Translations under genes and position numbers: made by a program
Shown: positions 24,149 to 64,000 of the stretch, in pieces
Layout: each line of letters begins with the position of its first letter
Numbering within the stretch: the stretch's first letter is position 1
The notes under the pieces: model-generated
The model's database searches: none
Told to the model about the DNA's origin: nothing
Seen by the model: only the letters and a program-made list of their open reading frames with translations
NCBI GenBank assembly: GCA_018655525.1
Contig: JABIJM010000002.1
Location: forward strand, 29,827-93,826
Length of the DNA: 64,000 nt
Reading direction: 5' to 3'
DNA from: Candidatus Woesearchaeota archaeon
GTDB taxonomy: Archaea; Nanobdellota; Nanobdellia; Woesearchaeales; GW2011-AR9

Positions 24149-24201
24149 ATTTATAAACATCTCCCTTTTTCTACCAATTCAAAAATTATCAACAAAACGT
24201 T

Positions 24202-26296: not shown

Positions 26297-26503
26297 ATGG
26301 CAGAAACAATCACTATTAGAAAAGAACTTGTTGAGAGATTAATTACAGATTTTGATGAATTAGTTCATGAATTGGAAGATGAACAACTCTCTGAAGAAGC
26401 TTTACGTAGAATTAAAGAAGTTGAGGAAGGTAAAGCTAAAATGCTTACAGAAGAAGAATTTCTAAATAAGTTAAGACAGGATGGTATTGATATCTCTTTT
26501 TGA
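26297..26503 (+). CDS. Putative antitoxin of a type II TA pair
   Basis: 68-aa acidic helical ORF whose 3' end overlaps the RelE/ParE-like ORF by 23 nt. Confidence 0.5.
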   Translation: MAETITIRKELVERLITDFDELVHELEDEQLSEEALRRIKEVEEGKAKMLTEEEFLNKLRQDGIDISF

Positions 26504-26795
26504 ATTTCATGAAGATTTTTATGGTGATCTAAAAAAGCTTTCTTTAATTTTAAAGAAAAGAGTATCCTCTAAAATACGAGATATTAAGATGAACCCTAGG
26601 CGTTTTAAACATCTTTCAGGTCCAGGGAACTATTATTCTGCCCGTGTGGGAGATTTAAGAATAATTTATGGGATAAAAGAAAATAAAGTTAAGTTTTTAA
26701 TGGTAGAACAAAGAAGTAAAGTTTACCAAAATTATTATAAAAGAATTTCGCGCGTACGTGAAGCATTGGTACATTATGGAATCAACAACGAATAA
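26481..26795 (+). CDS. RelE/ParE-family toxin
   Basis: FHEDFYGDLKKL..., KHLSGPGNYYSARVGDLRIIYGIKENKVKFLMVEQRSKVY (the RVGDYRIIY...R..VY signature). Confidence 0.7.
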   Translation: MVLISLFEFHEDFYGDLKKLSLILKKRVSSKIRDIKMNPRRFKHLSGPGNYYSARVGDLRIIYGIKENKVKFLMVEQRSKVYQNYYKRISRVREALVHYGINNE

Positions 26796-29415: not shown

Positions 29416-29526
29416 AGCGAGGTGGAGCAGCTAGGAGTGCTCGCTGGGCTCATAACCCAGAGGTCGGAGGAGGTCAATAAGATACGTTCTTGTGACTGCC
29501 GAATTCAAATCCTCCCTTCGCTACCA
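29416..29526 (+). tRNA. tRNA-Met (CAU), initiator-like, with a ~33-nt intron in the T-arm (about 29471-29503) and an encoded CCA
   Basis: Cloverleaf: AGCGAGG-UG-GAGC-AGCUAGGAGU-GCUC-G-CUGGG-CUCAUAA-CCCAG-AGGUC-GGAGG-[intron]-UUCAAAU-CCUCC-CUUCGCU-A-CCA. An A1:U72 pair and three G:C pairs closing the anticodon stem are initiator hallmarks. Confidence 0.8.
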
Positions 29527-30219
29527 TTTTATTCTTTTATTATCTTTATTTTTTTCTTTCCAAATCCTAATTTTTTCAAGATTCTTTGGTTGATTTGTAC
29601 CAATAACATCTAACCATTTGATTAATTGGTGATGGCCATTCATTTCAATTCTATTAATTATACTAAATCCTTTTTTAAAACGATTATCATTAAATCTCAC
29701 ATCAAAGAACCTATTAACTTTAAACCCATTTTCTTCTAAAATTAATGAAATCTCTCTCATGAATTCTTTACACTTTGAAGAACCAGAGATCACGGGATAT
29801 TTTCCGTATCTAAGAACAATTGAAAAATCAGTATCCGCAACGCCCTTAATAAACTTAAAAAGCAATTTTCTATCAGAATAAAATATTTTTGGTATTCTAA
29901 GTGAATTTTTTGGACTTTTGGTAAGCCCTATTTCATTTAAAAGAAATTCAACAAGATTTTTAGAATACACATTTACCCCATAAGTTCCTTTTGAAAATAA
30001 TTGTGGTTTTACTGAAATATTAAATAACTCTTTAAATAAATTTTTGATAGTTCTGTTGTAAAACTCCTTTTCATCTTTTGGATTTCCTCCACAATTGACA
30101 AGGTATTCCTTTTTATGTTCTCGTATTTGGATGTATCCATCTCCAGCAAGAATTCCGCACAGATAAGCAAGATTCTCACTGAGTTTAGGGATCTTGATTT
30201 TTTTTGCTTTTCTCATCAA
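29521..30219 (-). mobile_element. Free-standing double-motif LAGLIDADG homing-endonuclease-like ORF (232 aa)
   Basis: LAYLCGILAGDGYIQI (motif 1) and LFKFIKGVADTDFSI (motif 2, degenerate G->F). The stop codon overlaps the 3' end of tRNA-Met on the opposite strand. Confidence 0.65.
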
Positions 30220-35102: not shown

Positions 35103-35999
35103 ATGGAAGCACCACTACATACAATACCTCAAAATTCTGATTTGTTAATTACAGGATATGAACCTATTATGGACAACTTACTTTTTGGAAAATATTTGAA
35201 CCCTGCACAATCTGATTTGCTTATTGTTCAAAAATTCAGAAAACCGGAACTTTCTGATATTTATGTCAACCTTTTACCTTTGATGGATCATATAGGAAAT
35301 CACCTTCCATCTAATCCTATCTCTAGAACAGAATTTTATCTTCGATGTCTGCATGATAGAAAACTTTATGATTTGAGAATGAAAGCAGAAAAAAGTCTCC
35401 AAGAAAGAAAAACCCATTCTATTGATGATACAACAGGAGATTTAACGTTATACATTAGAAAAGGAAGATTTCCTACAGATTTAGTTGATTCCATACAATC
35501 TTCAAGTAATCCACACCATTCACTAATTAGATATTTGCCTACGCAGATATATGATGAAGGTTGTGAAAAAAATTATCCTCTTAAAACTTGGGTTAATATT
35601 TTATTTAAACATGTTAATGAAAGAAGTCCAATATTTGGAGAACGTTGGTGTCGGACAATTTCTATTGAGAGAGGTTTTTTAACGGATGATAAACTCCTTC
35701 AAATAAGACAGAGAGGAAAAAAAGGGAAAAAAAGGACTCATATTGGAGATGTTGTTTCTTCATTAAGAATTATATTTGATGCTTTAAGAAAAAATCCTGA
35801 GGCTGTTAACTCTTTGGACGATATCTCACCTCTACTTCTTGCTGAAGAAACATTTGAATATGCTAAAAGACAAGCTGGACATTCAAAAGTTGATGTTAGA
35901 AATGAAATCAATAAGCAAAAACGATATCATCATTCTATTGGTGAGATTTGTTTATCTCCTTTAGAAAGACTTCATGGTGACGAATCTTTTTCAAATTAA
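35103..35999 (+). CDS. Hypothetical protein
   Basis: 298-aa ORF. TTTATAAA at 35072-35079 ends 23 nt upstream of the ATG. Confidence 0.5.
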   Translation: MEAPLHTIPQNSDLLITGYEPIMDNLLFGKYLNPAQSDLLIVQKFRKPELSDIYVNLLPLMDHIGNHLPSNPISRTEFYLRCLHDRKLYDLRMKAEKSLQERKTHSIDDTTGDLTLYIRKGRFPTDLVDSIQSSSNPHHSLIRYLPTQIYDEGCEKNYPLKTWVNILFKHVNERSPIFGERWCRTISIERGFLTDDKLLQIRQRGKKGKKRTHIGDVVSSLRIIFDALRKNPEAVNSLDDISPLLLAEETFEYAKRQAGHSKVDVRNEINKQKRYHHSIGEICLSPLERLHGDESFSN

Positions 36000-54387: not shown

Positions 54388-54488
54388 GCGGGGGTAGCAA
54401 AGTTTGGTCAAACGCGCAGGACTTAAGTGGAGAAATCCAAAGATATCCTGTCCTTAGTGGTTCGAGGGTTCAAATCCCTTCCCCCGCA
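54388..54488 (+). tRNA. tRNA-Leu (UAA) with a canonical 37/38 intron (54428-54444, 17 nt) and a long variable arm
   Basis: The acceptor GCGGGGG pairs with CCCCCGC, with discriminator A. The anticodon arm is CAGGA-CUUAAG[intron]A-UCCUG and the T arm is GAGGG-UUCAAAU-CCCUU. The D stem is weak (A:C mismatch). Confidence 0.75.
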
Positions 54489-58261: not shown

Positions 58262-59386
58262 ATGGAAATATCTTCTATTGTAAAAAACGATTTCTTAGAA
58301 TTAAATGACGAAACAAAACTATCTGAAGTAATTGGTCAGATGCGCCAATATGAAAAACGATCAGCTTTAGTGTTTAAGAATAAACGCTATCTTGGATTAG
58401 TTGAAAAGAAAAAAATCATACATACTAATGTAGATCCTTCTGAAGTAGGGATTGCAGACTTTTTACAGAGAACACCAATCTTAGATGAATCAACAAATGT
58501 TTTAGAAGCTGCTCACATCATGTTTGAACAAGATGTTAATCATTTACCTGTGAGTAAGGATAAAGAAGTTATAGGTGTTGTATCTTCATTAGATTTAGCA
58601 AACCTTGCACTTCAACTTCCACGAGTTGCATCTCTGAGAGTAGATGAAGTCAAAATTCTAAAATCAAATCATGTGACAAAAGATAATCCATTATCACAAG
58701 CAATGCATATCATGCGTGAAGATCATGTAGATCATGTCCCTGTATTTGATCAAGGAGAACTATACGGAATCTTATCATATCGTGATATTATCCGAAAAGC
58801 AATCAACTGGTCCCCACATCGTGATAAGGCTGGACATTTCAATGCTGAATTGCATTCAAAAGCAGCATCAGTTGAAACAACGCCGTTTCCTATGTTACCC
58901 GTAGGTGAGTTTAGTACAAATGATAATTTGATTAGTATAGCACCAACAGATTCATTGAAATCAGCTGTTGATAAAATGGTAAAAAAACGTGTGAAATCTT
59001 TATTGATACAAGATTCAGAAAAACTCTATGGTGTTTTATCGGTGAGAAACATTCTTGGAAAAGTTTCATCCTTAGAAAAGATCGCGAATTACGTTCTAAA
59101 CTACGTAGGATTAAACGATTGTAATCTCTCTGAACATCAAGAAAATGTTTTGTATGCAATTACAGAAAGAGAAGCAGAAAAACTTCAGCGAAAGATTGAT
59201 GAAACCTTCCGTGTAACTGTTCATCTTAAGCAAATCAACAAAGAAGGTAAACAATCTCAGTTTGACATAAAGTTAAAGATAGACCTTCCTGGAAAAATTC
59301 TCGCATCAGAGAAATCCGATTGGGATCTTGAAACAGCTTTGCATAAAGTCTTCAATATCGTTGAAAGTGAATTGCAGCGGGTTTAG
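58262..59386 (+). CDS. Four-CBS-domain protein fused to a C-terminal HPF/RaiA (S30AE)-like domain
   Basis: Four CBS-like units (e.g. VNHLPVSKDKEVIGVVSSLDL, VDHVPVFDQGELYGILSYRDI, KSLLIQDSEKLYGVLSVRNI). The C-terminus, EREAEKLQRKIDETFRVTVHLKQ...QFDIKLKIDLPGKILASEKSDWDLETALHKVFNIVESELQR, follows the beta-alpha-beta-beta-beta-alpha pattern of ribosome hibernation factors. Confidence 0.55.
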   Translation: MEISSIVKNDFLELNDETKLSEVIGQMRQYEKRSALVFKNKRYLGLVEKKKIIHTNVDPSEVGIADFLQRTPILDESTNVLEAAHIMFEQDVNHLPVSKDKEVIGVVSSLDLANLALQLPRVASLRVDEVKILKSNHVTKDNPLSQAMHIMREDHVDHVPVFDQGELYGILSYRDIIRKAINWSPHRDKAGHFNAELHSKAASVETTPFPMLPVGEFSTNDNLISIAPTDSLKSAVDKMVKKRVKSLLIQDSEKLYGVLSVRNILGKVSSLEKIANYVLNYVGLNDCNLSEHQENVLYAITEREAEKLQRKIDETFRVTVHLKQINKEGKQSQFDIKLKIDLPGKILASEKSDWDLETALHKVFNIVESELQRV

Positions 59387-59437
59387 TTTTTTTTTTCTTT
59401 TCTTGAATAAATCTCTCTTTATTTAGAACAATTGTCT

Positions 59438-59490
59438 GGGAGAGGATTGTTTATTTTTTAGAAATTTAATAAAAATGGAGGAATGTTTAT
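59438..59490 (+). repeat. Cassette-junction repeat module, partial copy (tandem GGAGAGGATTGTTTAT / GGAGGAATGTTTAT)
   Basis: GGAGGAATGTTTAT at 59477-59490 is identical to 60890-60903. A degenerate copy lies at 59438-59455. Confidence 0.6.
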
Positions 59491-59500
59491 AGAATCCAAG

Positions 59501-60739
59501 CTATGTGGTTGAAGAATTATATACAGAGCCATTCTTAAACAGAAACAATATAATTGTTCCAACAAATATGAAGACTGCCATTCCGATTAATACTTTATTG
59601 AGAGGATACAAATCCATGAATTGTCCTAAACCTACATATAATCCCGCTGTGATTAAGTTATAGATTAAACTTTTTACAGAAAGAACTGTTGCTCTATTAG
59701 ATGAAGAGATATGGCTGTTAACATAATCTTCCAATATTATTTCTTTAAATGCCATCATTGCATAAAAGATACCAAAAGAGATTAGTAAAGTTAGGGGGTT
59801 ATCTAATCCAAAAAGAACAAATACAACTGCCTGTGATAATAAAATCAATATTAATGAAGTTTTTTCTTTTATTTTTTCTTCGATTTTATGAGTAAACCAA
59901 GAAATCAATCCCCGAATAGCCATCATACCTGCCAAAATAATCCCAAAAAATTTTACATCAAAGCCATTAGATATTAATAAGGGCTGTTGCCAAAAATCAA
60001 AGAAGAATTCGATTCCAATTCCTGAAAGAAAAAAGAAAGCTATAAGCCACATGATTTGTTTATGGTTTATGGTAAAATTGAACCCCTTTACAGTTTGTTT
60101 CCAGTGAGTTCTAATATTTAATTTTTTACGTTGCTTATAAGGCTCAACCATTGTTGAGATTACAATAGCTGCAATCAAATATATCCCTCCAGTGATTATA
60201 AAACCTAGTCGTGGATTAATTAGATAAATTATTGGCCCTAGAAAAACTCCAATAATAGAGGCAATTTGATTAAACGTATTAATTTTCCCTCTAATTTTTT
60301 TATATTCTTTTTTTCTTCCTACTTTTTTTACAGAATCATATAAAAGGGCAACATCTGCCCCTGATATGAATGAGAATGCAAGACCAGCAACCACAGCAAT
60401 AATGTAAAAATGAATTGGCAAATCCATTAACCCAATGGATATAAAAACAACTGCATTTAAAACACAACCATAAATTAATGCTTTTTTTCTACCAATTAAG
60501 TCAGCAATTGCTCCAGTGGGTAATTCTAATACCACAACAACAAGGGCAAATATCATCTCATGAATTCCAATATTTGTAAAAGAAAAACCTAATCCCAAAT
60601 AATAAAGAGTATAAATCATCCAAATTAATCGGATATGGTCTATAAAAGAATAAACACCAAATTTCCAAATATTATTCCTTACATGCATACATATTTTAGT
60701 AAAGGAAGAACGCTTAAAAGAATTTCTATTAGTAAACAT
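59501..60739 (-). CDS. MFS-type transporter
   Basis: About 12 hydrophobic helices and a GAIADLIGRKKAL loop (MFS motif A-like). The start is moved to MFTNRN (60739; the alternative is 60688). The first 21 codons of the track ORF run through an intergenic repeat block (CCATCTGGAG) that is non-coding at its other copy. Confidence 0.7.
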   Translation of the reverse strand: MFTNRNSFKRSSFTKICMHVRNNIWKFGVYSFIDHIRLIWMIYTLYYLGLGFSFTNIGIHEMIFALVVVVLELPTGAIADLIGRKKALIYGCVLNAVVFISIGLMDLPIHFYIIAVVAGLAFSFISGADVALLYDSVKKVGRKKEYKKIRGKINTFNQIASIIGVFLGPIIYLINPRLGFIITGGIYLIAAIVISTMVEPYKQRKKLNIRTHWKQTVKGFNFTINHKQIMWLIAFFFLSGIGIEFFFDFWQQPLLISNGFDVKFFGIILAGMMAIRGLISWFTHKIEEKIKEKTSLILILLSQAVVFVLFGLDNPLTLLISFGIFYAMMAFKEIILEDYVNSHISSSNRATVLSVKSLIYNLITAGLYVGLGQFMDLYPLNKVLIGMAVFIFVGTIILFLFKNGSVYNSSTT

Positions 60740-60906
60740 TCCTCCCCATCTGGAGTTTTTCATTCTAATGAATAATTGGAAACTACCTTTATTCATAAAC
60801 AAAAGGGGGTTTTAGGGCATTAAAAAGTGTATATTTTTATGAATATACCCTATCACAAGAATGGACAAAACTCATTCTAATCATTTTTCGGAGGAATGTT
60901 TATAAA
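60731..60906 (+). repeat. Cassette-junction repeat module, copy A
   Basis: Ordered blocks: inverted GGGGAGGAATGTTTACT (60731-60747), CCATCTGGAGTTTTT (60746-60760), GGGGGTTTTAGGGCATTAAAAAGTG (60805-60829), ATACCCT (60845-60851) and GGAGGAATGTTTAT (60890-60903). Confidence 0.65.
60899..60906 (+). promoter_or_regulatory. TATA box embedded in the 3' end of repeat module A, 23 nt before the ATG at 60930
   Basis: GGAGGAATGTTTATAAAAAC. Confidence 0.5.
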
Positions 60907-60929
60907 AACACTTAATTATTTAAGATAAA

Positions 60930-61490
60930 ATGACTACTAAATTTCATGTATACATAAAAATTGGTTCTTTAGACTTAGAAAAATTCAAAAAAATTGTTTC
61001 ATGGTGTAATAAATATGTAAAATCACCAAGACATTCAAAGAATCTCAATTATTTGGAGGTTGATTTTTTAGGATCTAAAGTTAAGGTCCCAGTATTAGAT
61101 TTTCACGATCTTTTTCATATTAAAAAAGAAATCACTCAAGAAACATTAAAAAATTGTTTATATGAAAATTGCCCTGATGATTGGTACAAGCAAGCTCTTT
61201 ACATGACAGAAATTGTTTTTGATATTAATGGAAAAGATTTACATCTTCCAAAATGTGATAAAGGTGAGGAGTGGTATAAAGATTATATAGAAAAAACTGA
61301 TTTTTGGCGAAATAGGGAATATGAAGGTGGATTTGGTTACAATCTGTTTTTGTTTAATGATGTTATATTTTTTTGGTCAAATGCTAGAAGTGGTGGAGAA
61401 GCGTTAGTCTTTAGTAGAGACATAATTGATGAAATAAAGAAACTTGCAAAACTTGTTGATGGAGAGATAGTGGGACCGGATATATTTTAG
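60930..61490 (+). CDS. ORFan hypothetical protein (cassette 2)
   Basis: 186-aa ORF. TTTATAAA at 60899-60906 ends 23 nt upstream of the ATG. Confidence 0.5.
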   Translation: MTTKFHVYIKIGSLDLEKFKKIVSWCNKYVKSPRHSKNLNYLEVDFLGSKVKVPVLDFHDLFHIKKEITQETLKNCLYENCPDDWYKQALYMTEIVFDINGKDLHLPKCDKGEEWYKDYIEKTDFWRNREYEGGFGYNLFLFNDVIFFWSNARSGGEALVFSRDIIDEIKKLAKLVDGEIVGPDIF

Positions 61491-61496
61491 AAACAA

Positions 61497-61615
61497 ATAA
61501 TCCTCCAAATAAACACATCTTTGTTTACGGCTAGTCTTTCTCAAGAGGTATATCTGTAAACAATCACCTGTTTTTAGGGCATGAAAAGTCACCGTTTTTC
61601 TATAAACAAAGGTGC
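61497..61615 (+). repeat. Cassette-junction repeat module, copy C
   Basis: AGGTATATCTGTAAACAATCACCTGTTTTTAGGGCATGAAAAGTCACC (about 61546-61593) aligns with copy B's AGGTATATTTACAAAAAATCCCCCGTTTTTAGTCCGTTAAAAAGGTGCC. AAAAGTCACC is also shared with 62214-62223. Confidence 0.6.
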
Positions 61616-61655
61616 TAGAAAAAATTAACAAAATATTAAATCTAATTTATTCGGA

Positions 61656-62141
61656 CTATATTATAAGATTTGGAGCTTTTCGGATATCTCCTCTATATAC
61701 AACCCTAGTAGAATCTCCATAACCATTTAGAATCTCAAGTTCATTTTCTGCGGTATCCACATCTAATTTTAAATGGGCATCAGTTGAGGGTGGACTCCAT
61801 CTAATATGAGTATTAGAATCAAGAAACCCGTATTTTTTTAGTAAAGCAGGCACAAATTCTCTATCTTCTAAAAAGTAATCTCTATCTTCATCGTCATCAT
61901 CAACTGAATTACCAGCAACATATACATCTAAATAATCTGGTTTTTGAAACCTTAATAAAGCATCTTTCACCATACCTTCTAATCCATCAATATTAGCATC
62001 AACAAAATGACCAGCATAAGCTGCTTGTATTTGTTTATCATGTATAATTATACCCACACTGGGTCCTAAAGTTCCAGTATCTACTATACTTCCAGGTGGA
62101 ATGTATTCAACATCCCATAGTTTAAGTCTAATATATGCCAT
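61656..62141 (-). CDS. ORFan hypothetical protein (cassette 3)
   Basis: 161-aa ORF with its own GTTATAAATAAAAA box about 25 nt upstream on the minus strand. Confidence 0.5.
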   Translation of the reverse strand: MAYIRLKLWDVEYIPPGSIVDTGTLGPSVGIIIHDKQIQAAYAGHFVDANIDGLEGMVKDALLRFQKPDYLDVYVAGNSVDDDDEDRDYFLEDREFVPALLKKYGFLDSNTHIRWSPPSTDAHLKLDVDTAENELEILNGYGDSTRVVYRGDIRKAPNLII

Positions 62142-62210
62142 ATTAACAAATATCCCTTTTTATTTATAACTCTTTCGTCTCTTTTTAGTGAATCCAAAAA
62201 CAAGAAGATG

Positions 62211-62385
62211 AATAAAAGTCACCATCTGGAGTTTTTTACACTTGACGTTTCTGAGCCAATAGGTATATTTACAAAAAATCCCCCGTTTTTAGTCCGTTAA
62301 AAAGGTGCCTTTGTTTTTAAAAATACCCTCAGAGAAAAATCAACGATAAATAAAGATACAATTATTTGGAGTTTTTTTTACTAAA
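62211..62385 (+). repeat. Cassette-junction repeat module, copy B
   Basis: CCATCTGGAGTTTTTT (62222-62237), CCCCCGTTTTTAGTCCGTTAAAAAGGTGCC (62280-62309), ATACCCT (62323-62329) and TTGGAGTTTTTTTT (62366-62379). Inter-block spacings (58, 43, 45 nt) match copy A (59, 40, 45 nt). Confidence 0.65.
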
Positions 62386-62427
62386 GAGAGACAAAAGTTT
62401 TATAAATATAGGGTTTTGATTCTCCTT

Positions 62428-63579
62428 ATGACATCACGAATGGATAATATTGAAATAGTATGGCTTTACGAAAACCTAAATATTCTTACAGTCAATAAGA
62501 GGGGCAATAATCTCATTGAAGATTTAAACATTCCAAGGATAGAAAAAGATATTGAGATTGAAAAAAATTACTTTCTAGAAACACATTCAGAAAAAGAATA
62601 TATCACAGAATCACAAAAATCAGCTGAAAATATTTTTGAACAGTACAAAAAATTTGGAGGTCAAATTCAACGAATCCATAAGGTAATTGTTTGGTATAAA
62701 GAATTAGGGATGCTCAAAAAAGTTGCTGAAATAGGCGATTATATCCTAAGCCAATTACAACAAGATAAAGAATTATTGTGTGAAGCAAATACTCCCTCAC
62801 CTATGGAAGAATTAAAGGCCGTTGCTTTAAGTTACTATTATTTTAATGATGAAGAAATAATTGATAAATTTGTGAGCTATTGTTTTCAAGCAGGTAAGTG
62901 GTATTTTGCTTTCAGATTTATGAATCAAATTAAGAAACCTCTCTCTAATAATCAGTTAAATGAAGCGGCAAAATTCTACATGGGTAAGGAAGATTTAAAA
63001 CGTACTCTTGAGGTATTAACTTTAACTAAAAGTATGGATTTGTATGAAAAATTAGGTGAACTCTCTTTTTCAAAACTAAGAAAAGCAAATGAAAATGAAT
63101 TTATTTATATATTTATAGCAATAGCAGTTAGTTGCTACTATGCTACTAAGAACAATCAAAAATTAGAGGAATTAGAAAATTTTGTTCTTTCAGCGGATCA
63201 AGCACATATTCTTGTTGAGATATATTTACTATGTAGAGATTCTGTGGGATTAAACAAATTACTGATTTATGGAAAAAAGAAGAATGATTATTTATTAATT
63301 TTAAAATCTGCCATAGGCGTTGGAAAATTAGAAAGATATTTCAAAGAGGCTATGGAAATTAGAAAATACGCAGAAATAATTGACTTATGTAAATGGGAAA
63401 AAGAAAACAATGAAGGTTTTTTTCATATGCCAAAATTAATAGAAGAATTATTTTTAAAGTTAAATAAAGAAAAAAAATATGAGTTGCTTGAATCATTATA
63501 TTATTATTCCAATATGGAAAAAAATTATTTTAATTATTCTCCGAGCATATATGCGATAATAGAAAAAAAATTCAAATAA
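62428..63579 (+). CDS. ORFan helical-repeat protein (cassette 4)
   Basis: 383-aa ORF from ATG 62428. TTTATAAA at 62399-62406 ends 21 nt upstream. It is rich in helical repeats (TPR-like by eye only). Confidence 0.5.
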   Translation: MTSRMDNIEIVWLYENLNILTVNKRGNNLIEDLNIPRIEKDIEIEKNYFLETHSEKEYITESQKSAENIFEQYKKFGGQIQRIHKVIVWYKELGMLKKVAEIGDYILSQLQQDKELLCEANTPSPMEELKAVALSYYYFNDEEIIDKFVSYCFQAGKWYFAFRFMNQIKKPLSNNQLNEAAKFYMGKEDLKRTLEVLTLTKSMDLYEKLGELSFSKLRKANENEFIYIFIAIAVSCYYATKNNQKLEELENFVLSADQAHILVEIYLLCRDSVGLNKLLIYGKKKNDYLLILKSAIGVGKLERYFKEAMEIRKYAEIIDLCKWEKENNEGFFHMPKLIEELFLKLNKEKKYELLESLYYYSNMEKNYFNYSPSIYAIIEKKFK

Positions 63580-63626
63580 TCCACCTAAATATATTCTAAA
63601 TAATGAACATATTATCAATAAAGAAT

Positions 63627-63909
63627 AAAATAACCTCCAATTTTTTAGTTTGAGATTTTAATGAATTAGTTTACAATTCTGATAGGGGGTAGTTTTTAGC
63701 AGTTTTTTAAGATTTTGAAAAAAGGTGCCTTTTTTTACAAATCCCAATAAATCCCCCTTTTTTGAAAAACCTCCCCCTACTTGACTAAAATTCTATCTTG
63801 AATCTCAAAATTCAAAAAATAGTAAAAATCATCTAAAAGAGGGTGGGGGAGGATTATTTGACTTTAAGCCCCATTTTGGGTATGTTGTTATAATGGGAGG
63901 AATGTTTTT
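63627..63909 (+). repeat. Cassette-junction repeat module, copy D (expanded)
   Basis: GGGGGTAGTTTTTAGCAGTTTTTTAAGATTTTGAAAAAAGGTGCCTTTTTTTACAAATCCC (63685-63745), a second CCCCCTTTTTTGAAAAACC unit (about 63754-63772), and GGAGGAATGTTTTT (63896-63909). Confidence 0.6.
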
Positions 63910-64000
63910 ACTTCAAAAATTCTGTTTAATTAGTTAATTTAATATATCTCTTAAATCTATGTCTTCTTCATGTCTTTTAATTTTTGGATGAAGAAAAGAA

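Follow-up and report, generated by a model that had tools for sequence, protein, structure and literature searches.

The window, a stretch of 64,000 nucleotides (nt) from a marine Woesearchaeota (DPANN archaeon) contig, ends within an island of eight genes (59.40 to 67.65 kb, about 8.2 kb). The spacers of this island carry copies of a 12- to 14-nt repeat and, in three cases, a related non-coding unit of about 156 nt, here named X, which we tentatively read as regulatory punctuation of the island genes. In the tiny genomes of DPANN archaea, accessory genes have a fast turnover, the mechanism of which is largely unknown, and at this hotspot eight unrelated genes, several without relatives anywhere, stand amid conserved neighbours, punctuated by short exact repeats and a duplicated spacer unit.

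The gene island and its context

The proteins encoded in the window include ribosomal proteins L15e, S24e, S27 and S10, EF-1alpha, Rpb7, Spt4/5, GINS and FtsZ, and its G+C content is about 32%. A metagenomic contig of 253,605 bp, found in two NCBI metagenome-assembled genomes (MAGs) as well, contains the reverse complement of the window at 100% identity. The locus L001 adds 8,141 nt past the window end (window coordinate = 72142 - L001 coordinate), and searches inside this genome covered about 72 kb, namely window positions 1 to 64000 and the 8.1 kb beyond.

Scanning species-representative genomes with the CBS-domain protein encoded at the left edge of the island yielded two relatives with 88% and 84% amino acid identity. 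In the first related Woesearchaeota genome, the CBS-domain gene is followed after 172 nt by a homologue of the 119-amino-acid (aa) gene from the right flank of the island, with no island genes between them, and in the second one unrelated 334-aa gene separates the two. Homology to the related genomes L007 and L008 ends at about 59396-59401. Since the relatives hold no gene or one unrelated gene between the same flanking genes, the region from 59.40 to 67.65 kb is a variable island, and the locus is a genuine gene-content hotspot. A preliminary description of the window, made from the letters alone, had proposed a site-specific insertion hotspot, and the gene-content part of this idea stands, with none or one gene in the relatives vs eight here. 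That description followed the array to the right edge of the window, and the island continues to about position 67652, 3.65 kb further on.

The island genes are oriented - + - + + - + + and encode a transporter of the MFS family, proteins of 186, 161, 383 and 420 aa, a tandem Lrp/AsnC regulator, a 64-aa NikA-like ribbon-helix-helix protein and a 179-aa lipoprotein. No paralogy was found among the island proteins, which rules out tandem gene duplication. The composition is not foreign (coding G+C 0.307 vs 0.331). A viral or plasmid origin was rejected for lack of a DNA match in PLSDB plasmids and INPHARED phages and of a relative of the 420-, 383-, 186- or 161-aa proteins in IMG/VR, together with negligible PHROGs matches. 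A replication origin with origin recognition box repeats was also rejected, as no Orc1/Cdc6 domain is recorded in the 72 kb and the region is absent from both relatives. The whole island is bounded by inverted 20-mers matching at 17/20 positions. Its spacers have a median length of 165 nt vs 61 nt outside (p = 7e-4), where convergent spacers have a median of 1 nt.

A related non-coding unit in three spacers

Unit X is non-coding, AT-rich and about 156 nt long in each of the spacers A, B and C (Table 1), which are collinear across about 165-175 columns and share 57.5% (A-B), 56% (B-C) and 49% (A-C) identity. Against dinucleotide shuffles, the semi-global alignment scores are 30.5 for A-B (z 8.4) and 38 for B-C (z 12.2), vs a maximal raw score of 21 and a 99th percentile z of 4.1 among 380 control pairs of non-island spacers, one of which reached z 8.7 as an artefact of A/T runs. 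Single-sequence nhmmer searches gave E = 0.009 for A-B, and 4.5e-4 (plus strand) and 7e-5 to 7e-3 (minus strand) for C-B. The block CCATCTGGAGTTTTT is found exactly at 60746 and 62222 and nowhere else in the 72 kb, and the central block GTTTTTAG-NNC-RT-KAAAAAG lies at 60808, 61570 and 62285, three matches vs 0.04 expected, with none elsewhere in the 72 kb. Judged by these alignments, A, B and C are a real homologous family.

The preliminary description had held the blocks to be homologous rather than chance matches, and for A, B and C, with scores above those of all control pairs, this is what we find; its block spacings between A and B (59/58, 40/43 and 45/43-45) are also as stated. It counted five copies of one module, of which A, B and C qualify, while spacer D and the copy at 59.4 kb share short blocks only. 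The block ATACCCT, also listed there as shared, is not significant alone because 4 further copies lie in the 72 kb. Exactly one open reading frame (ORF) does lie between consecutive copies, a trivial observation given that every island spacer carries motifs.

For spacer D, a 23-nt block is 87% identical to B (local alignment z 4.7), a core variant with a longer loop is seen at 63685-63729, and the family hidden Markov model gives E = 1.6, with motif scores of 14.1-19.7 bits. The 59.4-kb copy in spacer E has the 12-14-mer in common with the others and nothing more; the minus strand of this spacer reads AAACATTCCTCCATTTTT, starting 10 nt past the MFS stop codon. The spacer after the 420-aa gene, past the window, has about 30 nt in common with C (z 4.6).

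The A-B pair aligns with z 8.4 on the plus strand vs 2.4 on the minus strand, and the B-C pair with 12.2 vs 8.4. B is similar to its own reverse complement (E = 1e-6), C aligns with B in either orientation, and B and C are partly palindromic. By these alignment scores A and B are co-oriented, and B and C probably are. Of the earlier statement that all copies have the same polarity, the A-B part holds and the B-C part is favoured; it fails for the 12-mer, which lies on both strands. Three to five co-oriented copies are weak evidence in any case, with a chance of 1/4 to 1/16.

The core of X consists of an A-tract, a G-or-C pentamer and a T-tract, giving oligo-T on both strands and the core palindrome TTTTTA-N6-TAAAAA. 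Searches of the other 68 kb, of related loci (about 100 kb) and of viral loci (2.1 Mb) returned no copy of X. An IMG/VR scan with the 15-mers returned single chance matches per contig and no module, and a metagenome scan with a two-block pattern returned the same strain only. A, B and C show no conserved RNA structure (RNAalifold consensus -1.4 and -2.4 kcal/mol), a permissive Rfam 15 scan of 59300-64000 gave best E values of 1.3 and 3.8, far under the gathering score, and no small ORF is common to the modules; a known RNA family, a conserved RNA fold or a shared ORF thus does not fit as the identity of X. Template and variable repeats of a diversity-generating retroelement were rejected for lack of a reverse transcriptase and because the copies are non-coding and too diverged, and a C/D-box small RNA because, by eye, the spacers are without a RUGAUGA C box.

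Short repeats in inverted pairs around the genes

The 12-mer GGAGGAATGTTT is found exactly at 59477(+), 60890(+), 63896(+) and 60734(-), four matches vs 0.53 expected at up to one mismatch, a number that none of 100 shuffles reached. There is no fifth exact copy in the window or the 8.1 kb beyond. The 12-mer sites given in the preliminary description are therefore exact and above chance, with four copies in the 72 kb. A matrix scan for the 12-14-mer gave the copies by strand and bits listed in Table 1. Around each island gene the left copy is forward and the right copy reversed, regardless of the strand of the gene, with a weak pair at the 161-aa gene. Such an inverted pair is unchanged by a flip of the gene, so that constant plus-strand polarity, taken earlier to indicate recombination sites, is not by itself a sign of them.

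Promoters, 3' ends and island-specific motifs

Leaderless archaeal genes have promoters made of a transcription factor B recognition element (BRE) and a TATA box about 26-30 nt upstream of the start codon, and oligo-T stretches are termination signals. In a position weight matrix (PWM) built from 58 non-island genes (training median score 9.4), TTTATAAA starts at -30 from the ATG, the genome-wide mode, which indicates leaderless transcripts. The TATA box of the 60890 copy of the 12-mer begins at 60899, which is -31 relative to the ATG (60930), and scores 12.8, whereas the other three exact 12-mers have a weaker TATA (score <=7.0) or no gene at the right distance. The 60890 copy is, by position, a promoter and the only copy of the 12-mer to pass the BRE/TATA test. 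Further island TATA matches lie at 62170 (score 11.6, -29), 62399 (12.6, -29) and 66385 (9.3, -34). In all, TATA boxes at -29 to -34 of the ATG are seen for the 186-, 161-, 383-, 420- and 339-aa genes, that of the 420-aa gene being weaker (TTTAATAT at -32). The TATA boxes attributed earlier to the minus-strand genes are seen for the 161-aa gene (62163-62170, minus strand, at -29).

A GGAGG box precedes the TATA box by 4-7 nt in six of the eight island promoters and is not part of the genome-wide promoter profile; AATGTTTATAAAA is also the promoter of a non-island gene at 35103. The 3' element, (A)AACAT(T)CCTCC followed by a T-run, lies 0-55 nt past stop codons, and a C-rich box with a T-run within 80 nt of the stop is found at 4/8 island genes vs 2/78 elsewhere. 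Of the A-tract/G-rich/T motif, the island has 10 distinct sites in 8.3 kb vs 5 in the 63.9 kb outside it, and the relatives have almost none. Similarly, 11 CCCCCGTTTTT-like sites lie in the island spacers (1.8 kb) vs 11 in the other 64 kb, and runs of at least four G or four C number 4-9 per 2 kb in the island vs about 1.7 elsewhere. A genome-wide generic promoter or 5' untranslated region motif, the outcome against which the preliminary description had set its proposal, was not what we found, since the repeat motifs are local to the island. A generic genome-wide terminator or promoter is likewise weakened as a candidate by the island-specific GGAGG/CCTCC elements.

Outside the island, the sole good copy of the 3' motif, TTTATAAACATCTCCCTTTTTCTACCAAT, lies at window positions 24149-24180 between convergent genes and shares the exact 13-mer TTTTTCTACCAAT with the spacer after the 420-aa gene.

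Individual genes of the island

The start of the MFS gene was placed at the ATG at 60688 on the basis of homologues of 390-395 aa, and the MFS assignment made earlier is confirmed by Pfam. Its orthologues at 73-75% identity lie in three unrelated contexts from which the motifs are absent. A 99%-identical MFS gene (L257), considered as a separate variant, turned out to be the same strain. On a related metagenomic contig (L014, 7762-11173), a different tandem Lrp/AsnC regulator, 23% identical to that of the island, lies directly upstream of two MFS genes, one of which is the 75% orthologue of the island MFS. This arrangement hints at a recurring regulator-transporter pairing. The island regulator itself (339 aa) has no close homologues.

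The 186-aa protein has no credible match in Pfam, PHROGs or NCBIfam (best NCBIfam E = 0.047, 13.7 bits vs the 37.3-bit cut-off), and its single-sequence structure model was unusable (predicted local distance difference test, pLDDT, 35). The 161-aa protein had been described as an ORFan; we find three metagenomic homologues with 58, 54 and 33% identity, whose contexts are unrelated and free of the motifs, as well as a deamidase fold like that of CheD. Its AlphaFold model (pLDDT 90.9) matches CheD in Foldseek (2f9z_C, E = 1.2e-7, template modelling score 0.67-0.70). The conserved Cys of the homologues (GPCVG/GPCIA) is replaced by Ser (GPSVG), suggesting that this deamidase-like copy may be inactive or altered.

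The ORFan status given to the 383-aa protein is borne out, the sole match among 1.84 billion representative proteins being a 63-aa fragment of the same gene, with no family matches and no significant match in the PDB (best E = 0.22). The N-terminal half of the 420-aa protein is coiled-coil, and after it come a twin-arginine-like TRRKFLK at about residue 190, a hydrophobic stretch and a C-terminal alpha/beta-like domain; the middle of the protein is an unusual place for a twin-arginine-like motif. Beyond this gene, the tandem Lrp/AsnC regulator, the 64-aa ribbon-helix-helix protein and the 179-aa lipoprotein were identified with Pfam and NCBIfam.

Table 1. Genes, spacers, repeat units and signals at the island locus (window coordinates; values above 64000 lie past the window end)
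Feature	Position	Strand	Remarks
tRNA, 101 nt	54388-54488	+	Rfam, 44.3 bits; single Rfam match in window
Spacer E, between convergent CBS-domain and MFS genes; island left edge	59387-59500		T-run after CBS stop
Spacer E, tandem motif copies	59441-59454; 59477-59490		AGAGGATTGTTTAT (18.3 bits); GGAGGAATGTTTAT (22.1 bits)
MFS transporter, 395 aa, revised start	59501-60688	-	Pfam MFS_1, E = 3.8e-26
12-14-mer pair around MFS gene (-)	59477+ and 60732-		Matrix scan
Perfect 13-nt inverted repeat bracketing MFS gene	59477-59489; 60733-60745		GGAGGAATGTTTA; TAAACATTCCTCC
Spacer A, between divergent MFS and 186-aa genes	60689-60929		Repeat module 60733-60906
Unit X_A	~60740-60895		In spacer A
Spacer A blocks	60746-60760; 60805-60827; 60845-60851		CCATCTGGAGTTTTT; core GGGGGTTTTAGGGCATTAAAAAG; ATACCCT
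Promoter (BRE/TATA) of leaderless 186-aa gene	60890-60906	+	GGAGGAATG + TTTATAAA; island-specific GGAGG precedes
186-aa protein, function unassigned	60930-61490	+	No family match
12-14-mer pair around 186-aa gene (+)	60890+ and 61493-		Matrix scan
Spacer C, between convergent 186-aa and 161-aa genes	61491-61655		Abuts both stop codons; wholly unit X_C
Unit X_C	~61500-61655		In spacer C
Spacer C blocks, first half	61499-61506; 61546; 61565-61588		AATCCTCC; AGGTATAT; core CACCTGTTTTTAGGGCATGAAAAG
Spacer C blocks, second half	61590; 61645-61655		CACCGTTTTTC; ATTTATTCGGA
161-aa protein, CheD/NTAN1/CNF1-like deamidase fold	61656-62141	-	AlphaFold and Foldseek
12-14-mer pair around 161-aa gene			Weak pair; matrix scan
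Spacer B, between divergent 161-aa and 383-aa genes	62142-62427		Repeat module 62209-62385
Mirrored promoters of spacer B, 32-nt inverted repeat	62161-62192; 62377-62408		84% complementary
TATA boxes in spacer B	62163-62170 (-); 62399-62406 (+)		Each at -29 from ATG
Unit X_B	~62217-62372		In spacer B
Spacer B blocks	62222; 62261; 62280-62309; 62323		CCATCTGGAGTTTTT; AGGTATAT; core CCCCCGTTTTTAGTCCGTTAAAAAGGTGCC; ATACCCT
383-aa ORFan	62428-63579	+	No family matches
12-14-mer pair around 383-aa gene (+)	62368+ and 63625-		62368+ GGAG only; matrix scan
Spacer D, between tandem 383-aa and 420-aa genes	63580-63969		Degenerate module
Spacer D blocks, left	63627-63646; 63685-63736; 63753		AAAATAACCTCCAATTTTTT; core GGGGGTAGTTTTTAG...GAAAAAAGGTGCCTTTTTTT; CCCCCTTTTTT
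Spacer D blocks, right	63848-63861; 63896-63909; 63938		GGAGGATTATTTGA; GGAGGAATGTTTTT; TATA-like TTTAATAT
420-aa membrane protein gene	63970-65232 (L001 6910-8172, minus strand)	+	Window shows first 31 nt only
12-14-mer copies around 420-aa gene (+)	63848+ and 63896+, then 65248-		Last copy 65248-65261(-); matrix scan
12-14-mer by 339-aa gene (-)	65326-65339	+	Matrix scan
12-14-mer pair around 179-aa gene (+)	66939-66952(+) and 67541-67554(-)		Matrix scan
119-aa gene, right flank of island	67653-68012		Homologues in both relatives

Tests for recombination sites

Spacers E, A, C, B, D and F lack the consensus sequences of both attC boxes, R'' (RYYYAAC) and R' (GTTRRRY), and no complementary R''/R' pair 50-200 nt apart lies in the island on either strand. 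The preliminary description had suggested folding the modules in search of attC-like hairpins. Folded as single-stranded DNA, the cores of A, B and C (70 nt) are no more stable than shuffles on either strand (z -0.1 to -1.8) and form no stable hairpin; the imperfect hairpins of attC sites are about 57-141 nt long. The fold of the longer stretch 60733-60902 in A is significant (z -4.1, from the 13-nt terminal inverted repeat), as is that of B (z -3.2), and those of C and D (D z -1.1) are not. The palindromy of A and B is explained by their mirrored divergent promoters, with inverted repeats of 13 and 32 nt.

For the genes called in the 72 kb, no domain of an integrase, a tyrosine or serine recombinase or a transposase is on record, so that the earlier remark that no recombinase is visible in the window also holds for the 8.1 kb beyond. 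No tRNA fragments that could act as attachment sites were found with ARAGORN, the only tRNA lying at 54.4 kb, and this candidate was rejected. That tRNA presumably contains an intron and was missed by ARAGORN in bacterial mode. Neither MAG accession is present in the published list of archaeal integrons, which is weak evidence because the screening of these MAGs is unconfirmed; the list includes other Woesearchaeales (PMC9668308).

From the 22 contigs read that encode the 161-aa protein, six loci were retrieved, all of which match the window at 99.99-100%. One marine metagenome contig (L012, OREN01152598, 1,034 nt, 1.3x coverage) is identical to window positions 61631-62537 and departs from the window at 61630/61631, inside module C. 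Its first 127 nt have no match in the 72 kb and begin a different ORF, cut by the junction. The low coverage and the cut ORF make a chimera possible, and the contig is either an assembly chimera or a real strain variant.

The integron-like cassette array proposed in the preliminary description therefore fails the defining tests: there are no R boxes and no stable core hairpins, the genes have their own promoters and mixed orientation, and no recombinase is recorded.

Interpretation of the repeats

Our favoured reading, to which we give somewhat less than an even chance, is that the repeats are island-specific promoter-upstream and terminator-like punctuation combined with a locally duplicated spacer unit. 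The eight unrelated genes would then be separate, mostly leaderless transcription units, and their spacers, about three times longer than elsewhere, would be long because they carry an island-specific set of cis elements. One such element would be the 12-14 nt combination of GGAGG, AATG and TTTAT, in which the G-rich box is fused at 5' ends to an ordinary BRE/TATA promoter. Its inverted complement with a T-run past the stop codons would be a second, terminator-like element, placing each gene within an inverted pair. The remaining element would be unit X, with three putatively co-oriented copies (A, C and B) and degenerate pieces in D and the next spacer. With oligo-T on both strands from its core, X could serve as a bidirectional stop or insulator, and it might have spread by local duplication or recombination as genes joined the hotspot. 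Taken in this sense, the repeats may be regulatory punctuation and not recombination sites of the integron type, a distinction that we also put forward tentatively. If they are regulatory, they could show how newly gained genes obtain promoters and insulation in the compact genome of an archaeon; as recombination sites, they would point to a new route of gene capture in archaea.

Several observations speak against regulatory punctuation. Exact 12- to 15-mers in otherwise diverged sequence and inverted brackets at 5' and 3' ends go beyond what function alone asks for: four identical 12-mers, or an exact 15-mer in A and B, which are about 55% identical, exceed the needs of a promoter or terminator and suggest a sequence-specific protein or recent sequence exchange. 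The reading offers no explanation of why the 3' element is the inverted complement of the 5' element, nor does it account for the duplication mechanism that set co-oriented X copies between unrelated, alternately oriented genes. The divergent spacers A and B both carry the core, though no terminator is needed there. A terminator or insulator role of the 3' element and of X is suggested by T-runs only, and the island-specific status of the elements is based on about 72 kb of genome.

The rival explanations each cover part of these features. X might be a small non-autonomous mobile element of 156-170 nt, similar to MITEs (transposable elements of the miniature inverted-repeat type) or repetitive extragenic palindromic sequences, that hopped locally into three to five spacers and then decayed, bringing outward promoter and terminator-like sequences with it. 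In prokaryotes, MITEs lie between genes, may be clustered and may bring along promoters or terminator-like sequences (PMC10969869). The uniform length of X, its non-coding, AT-rich nature, the perfect 13-nt terminal inverted repeat and long hairpin of A (z -4.1) and the 9/12 matching positions at the termini of C are in line with such an element, as is the fact that its removal leaves spacers of normal size (about 85, 9 and 130 nt), C filling an entire convergent spacer. We nevertheless consider it unlikely: no target-site duplication or direct repeat is seen next to A, B or C, whichever plausible boundary is taken, B is without convincing terminal repeats, no transposase is recorded in the 72 kb, and the copies, 49-57% identical, all lie within 1.7-4.6 kb, with none dispersed in the 72 kb. 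The 13-nt repeat of A can also be explained as two mirrored promoters. A comparably low probability is given to the idea that the 12-14-mers, the core palindrome or both are operators for an island-encoded protein, with the tandem Lrp/AsnC regulator and the 64-aa ribbon-helix-helix protein as candidate binders and the island as one regulon. The two regulators encoded in the island, the island-specific motifs in eight of nine island spacers, the short blocks kept perfectly amid diverged sequence and the GGAGG box close upstream of TATA in six of eight promoters would suit operators. Sites right after stop codons are atypical operator places, the 156 nt of collinear homology are not accounted for, and the core is not known to resemble published Lrp-family sites.

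Recombination sites of a cassette system, with integron-like capture or shufflon-like inversion by a recombinase encoded elsewhere in the genome, would agree with a locus that varies between species, with homologous co-oriented modules that separate unrelated single genes, with exact 12-13-nt inverted repeats around genes and inverted 20-mers (17/20) around the island, with 161-aa and MFS homologues in unrelated contexts, and with the divergence of L012 inside module C. Integrons and integrase-less attC clusters have been reported in Nanoarchaeota and Woesearchaeales (Ghaly et al. 2022, PMC9668308). We regard this explanation as quite improbable, as the spacers hold no attC R boxes and their cores form no stable hairpins, the genes have promoters of their own and alternate in orientation, no recombinase is recorded in the 72 kb, six loci match the window at 99.99-100%, the modules do not travel with the gene homologues elsewhere, and L012, at 1.3x coverage and with a cut ORF, is possibly chimeric; the absence of both MAG accessions from the published integron list adds little, their screening being unconfirmed. 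Very unlikely, in our view, is a cassette system of a kind undescribed in DPANN archaea: single genes of either orientation, with inverted 12-14-nt GGAGGAATGTTTAT sites at their sides and homologous, co-oriented spacer units (about 156 nt) between them, would be captured, flipped or swapped at a hotspot of the chromosome through a recombinase whose gene lies elsewhere in the genome. Chance or low-complexity matching of AT-rich sequence is the least credible explanation and highly improbable. The sequence has 30% G+C and many A and T runs, one control pair reached z 8.7 through such runs, and D, E and the 7-mer ATACCCT are each weak when taken singly. For A, B, C and the 12-mer, chance is refuted by the shuffles, control pairs and nhmmer results, with four exact 12-mers vs 0.53 expected, an exact 15-mer pair, three core matches vs 0.04, alignment scores of 30.5 and 38 vs a control maximum of 21 and E values down to 7e-5.

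Other features of the window and its extension

The cumulative GC skew of the window has its minimum at about 60000-62000 and then rises; it is small and follows the gene strand. A pair of a small antitoxin-like gene (Unstab_antitox, weak) and a ParE-toxin-like gene (faint) lies amid housekeeping genes at 26297-26795 (L255 5974-6472). The RtcB gene beyond the window end appears to be split (L001 242-2405, minus strand; window-extended 69737-71900): after a 196-aa ORF resembling a LAGLIDADG_3 homing endonuclease come an 80-aa ORF, the end of which aligns with positions 1 to 24 of the RtcB profile, and then the 384-aa RtcB body. A degraded intein, an inserted homing endonuclease or a split gene may account for this arrangement. 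Another ORF, of 231 aa and with a faint match to LAGLIDADG_3, stands solitary at 29521-30216 (-).

Comparison with known systems

The island resembles integron arrays and clusters of attC sites lacking integron integrases (CALINs; PMC9668308) in that unrelated single genes are split by related, partly palindromic non-coding modules of the same polarity. As in CALINs, no integrase is adjacent to the island and the locus differs between related genomes. Unlike them, the island is without RYYYAAC/GTTRRRY boxes, its units are about 156 nt long with cores that are not stable single-strand hairpins, its 12-14-mers stand in inverted pairs, and no strain-level cassette variation is seen among the six loci compared. 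Integron cassette ORFs are mostly co-oriented and promoterless, whereas the island genes are mixed in orientation and have a promoter each.

In shufflons and other invertible gene segments, for example that of R64 (Rci/sfx), a short site recurs as inverted pairs on both sides of DNA segments, which are alternative gene ends. The island would be similar in having several copies of a short site arranged in this way. It differs in that no recombinase is nearby, the segments are whole unrelated genes, and no inverted form is seen in any contig.

Like prokaryotic MITEs, such as Correia, ERIC and RUP/SPRITE elements and the Sulfolobus elements SM1-4 (PMC10969869), X is small, non-coding, AT-rich, intergenic and clustered, with a possible counterpart of their terminal inverted repeats in at least one copy and possible promoter- or terminator-like sequence. 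Unlike MITEs, the copies of X are few, local and about 50-57% identical, without target-site duplications and, in the 72 kb, without dispersed copies or a cognate transposase.

Compared with ordinary archaeal signals, the GGAGG/CCTCC box and the A-tract/G5/T-tract core are peculiar in that neither is part of the promoters or 3' ends of the 78 other genes examined, and the island copies are identical beyond functional need. The elements nevertheless resemble such signals in two respects: for the 186-aa gene, the TTTAT(A) of the 12-14-mer is a TATA box in the usual place at -30, and the T-runs after the inverted copies past stop codons are similar to archaeal termination signals.

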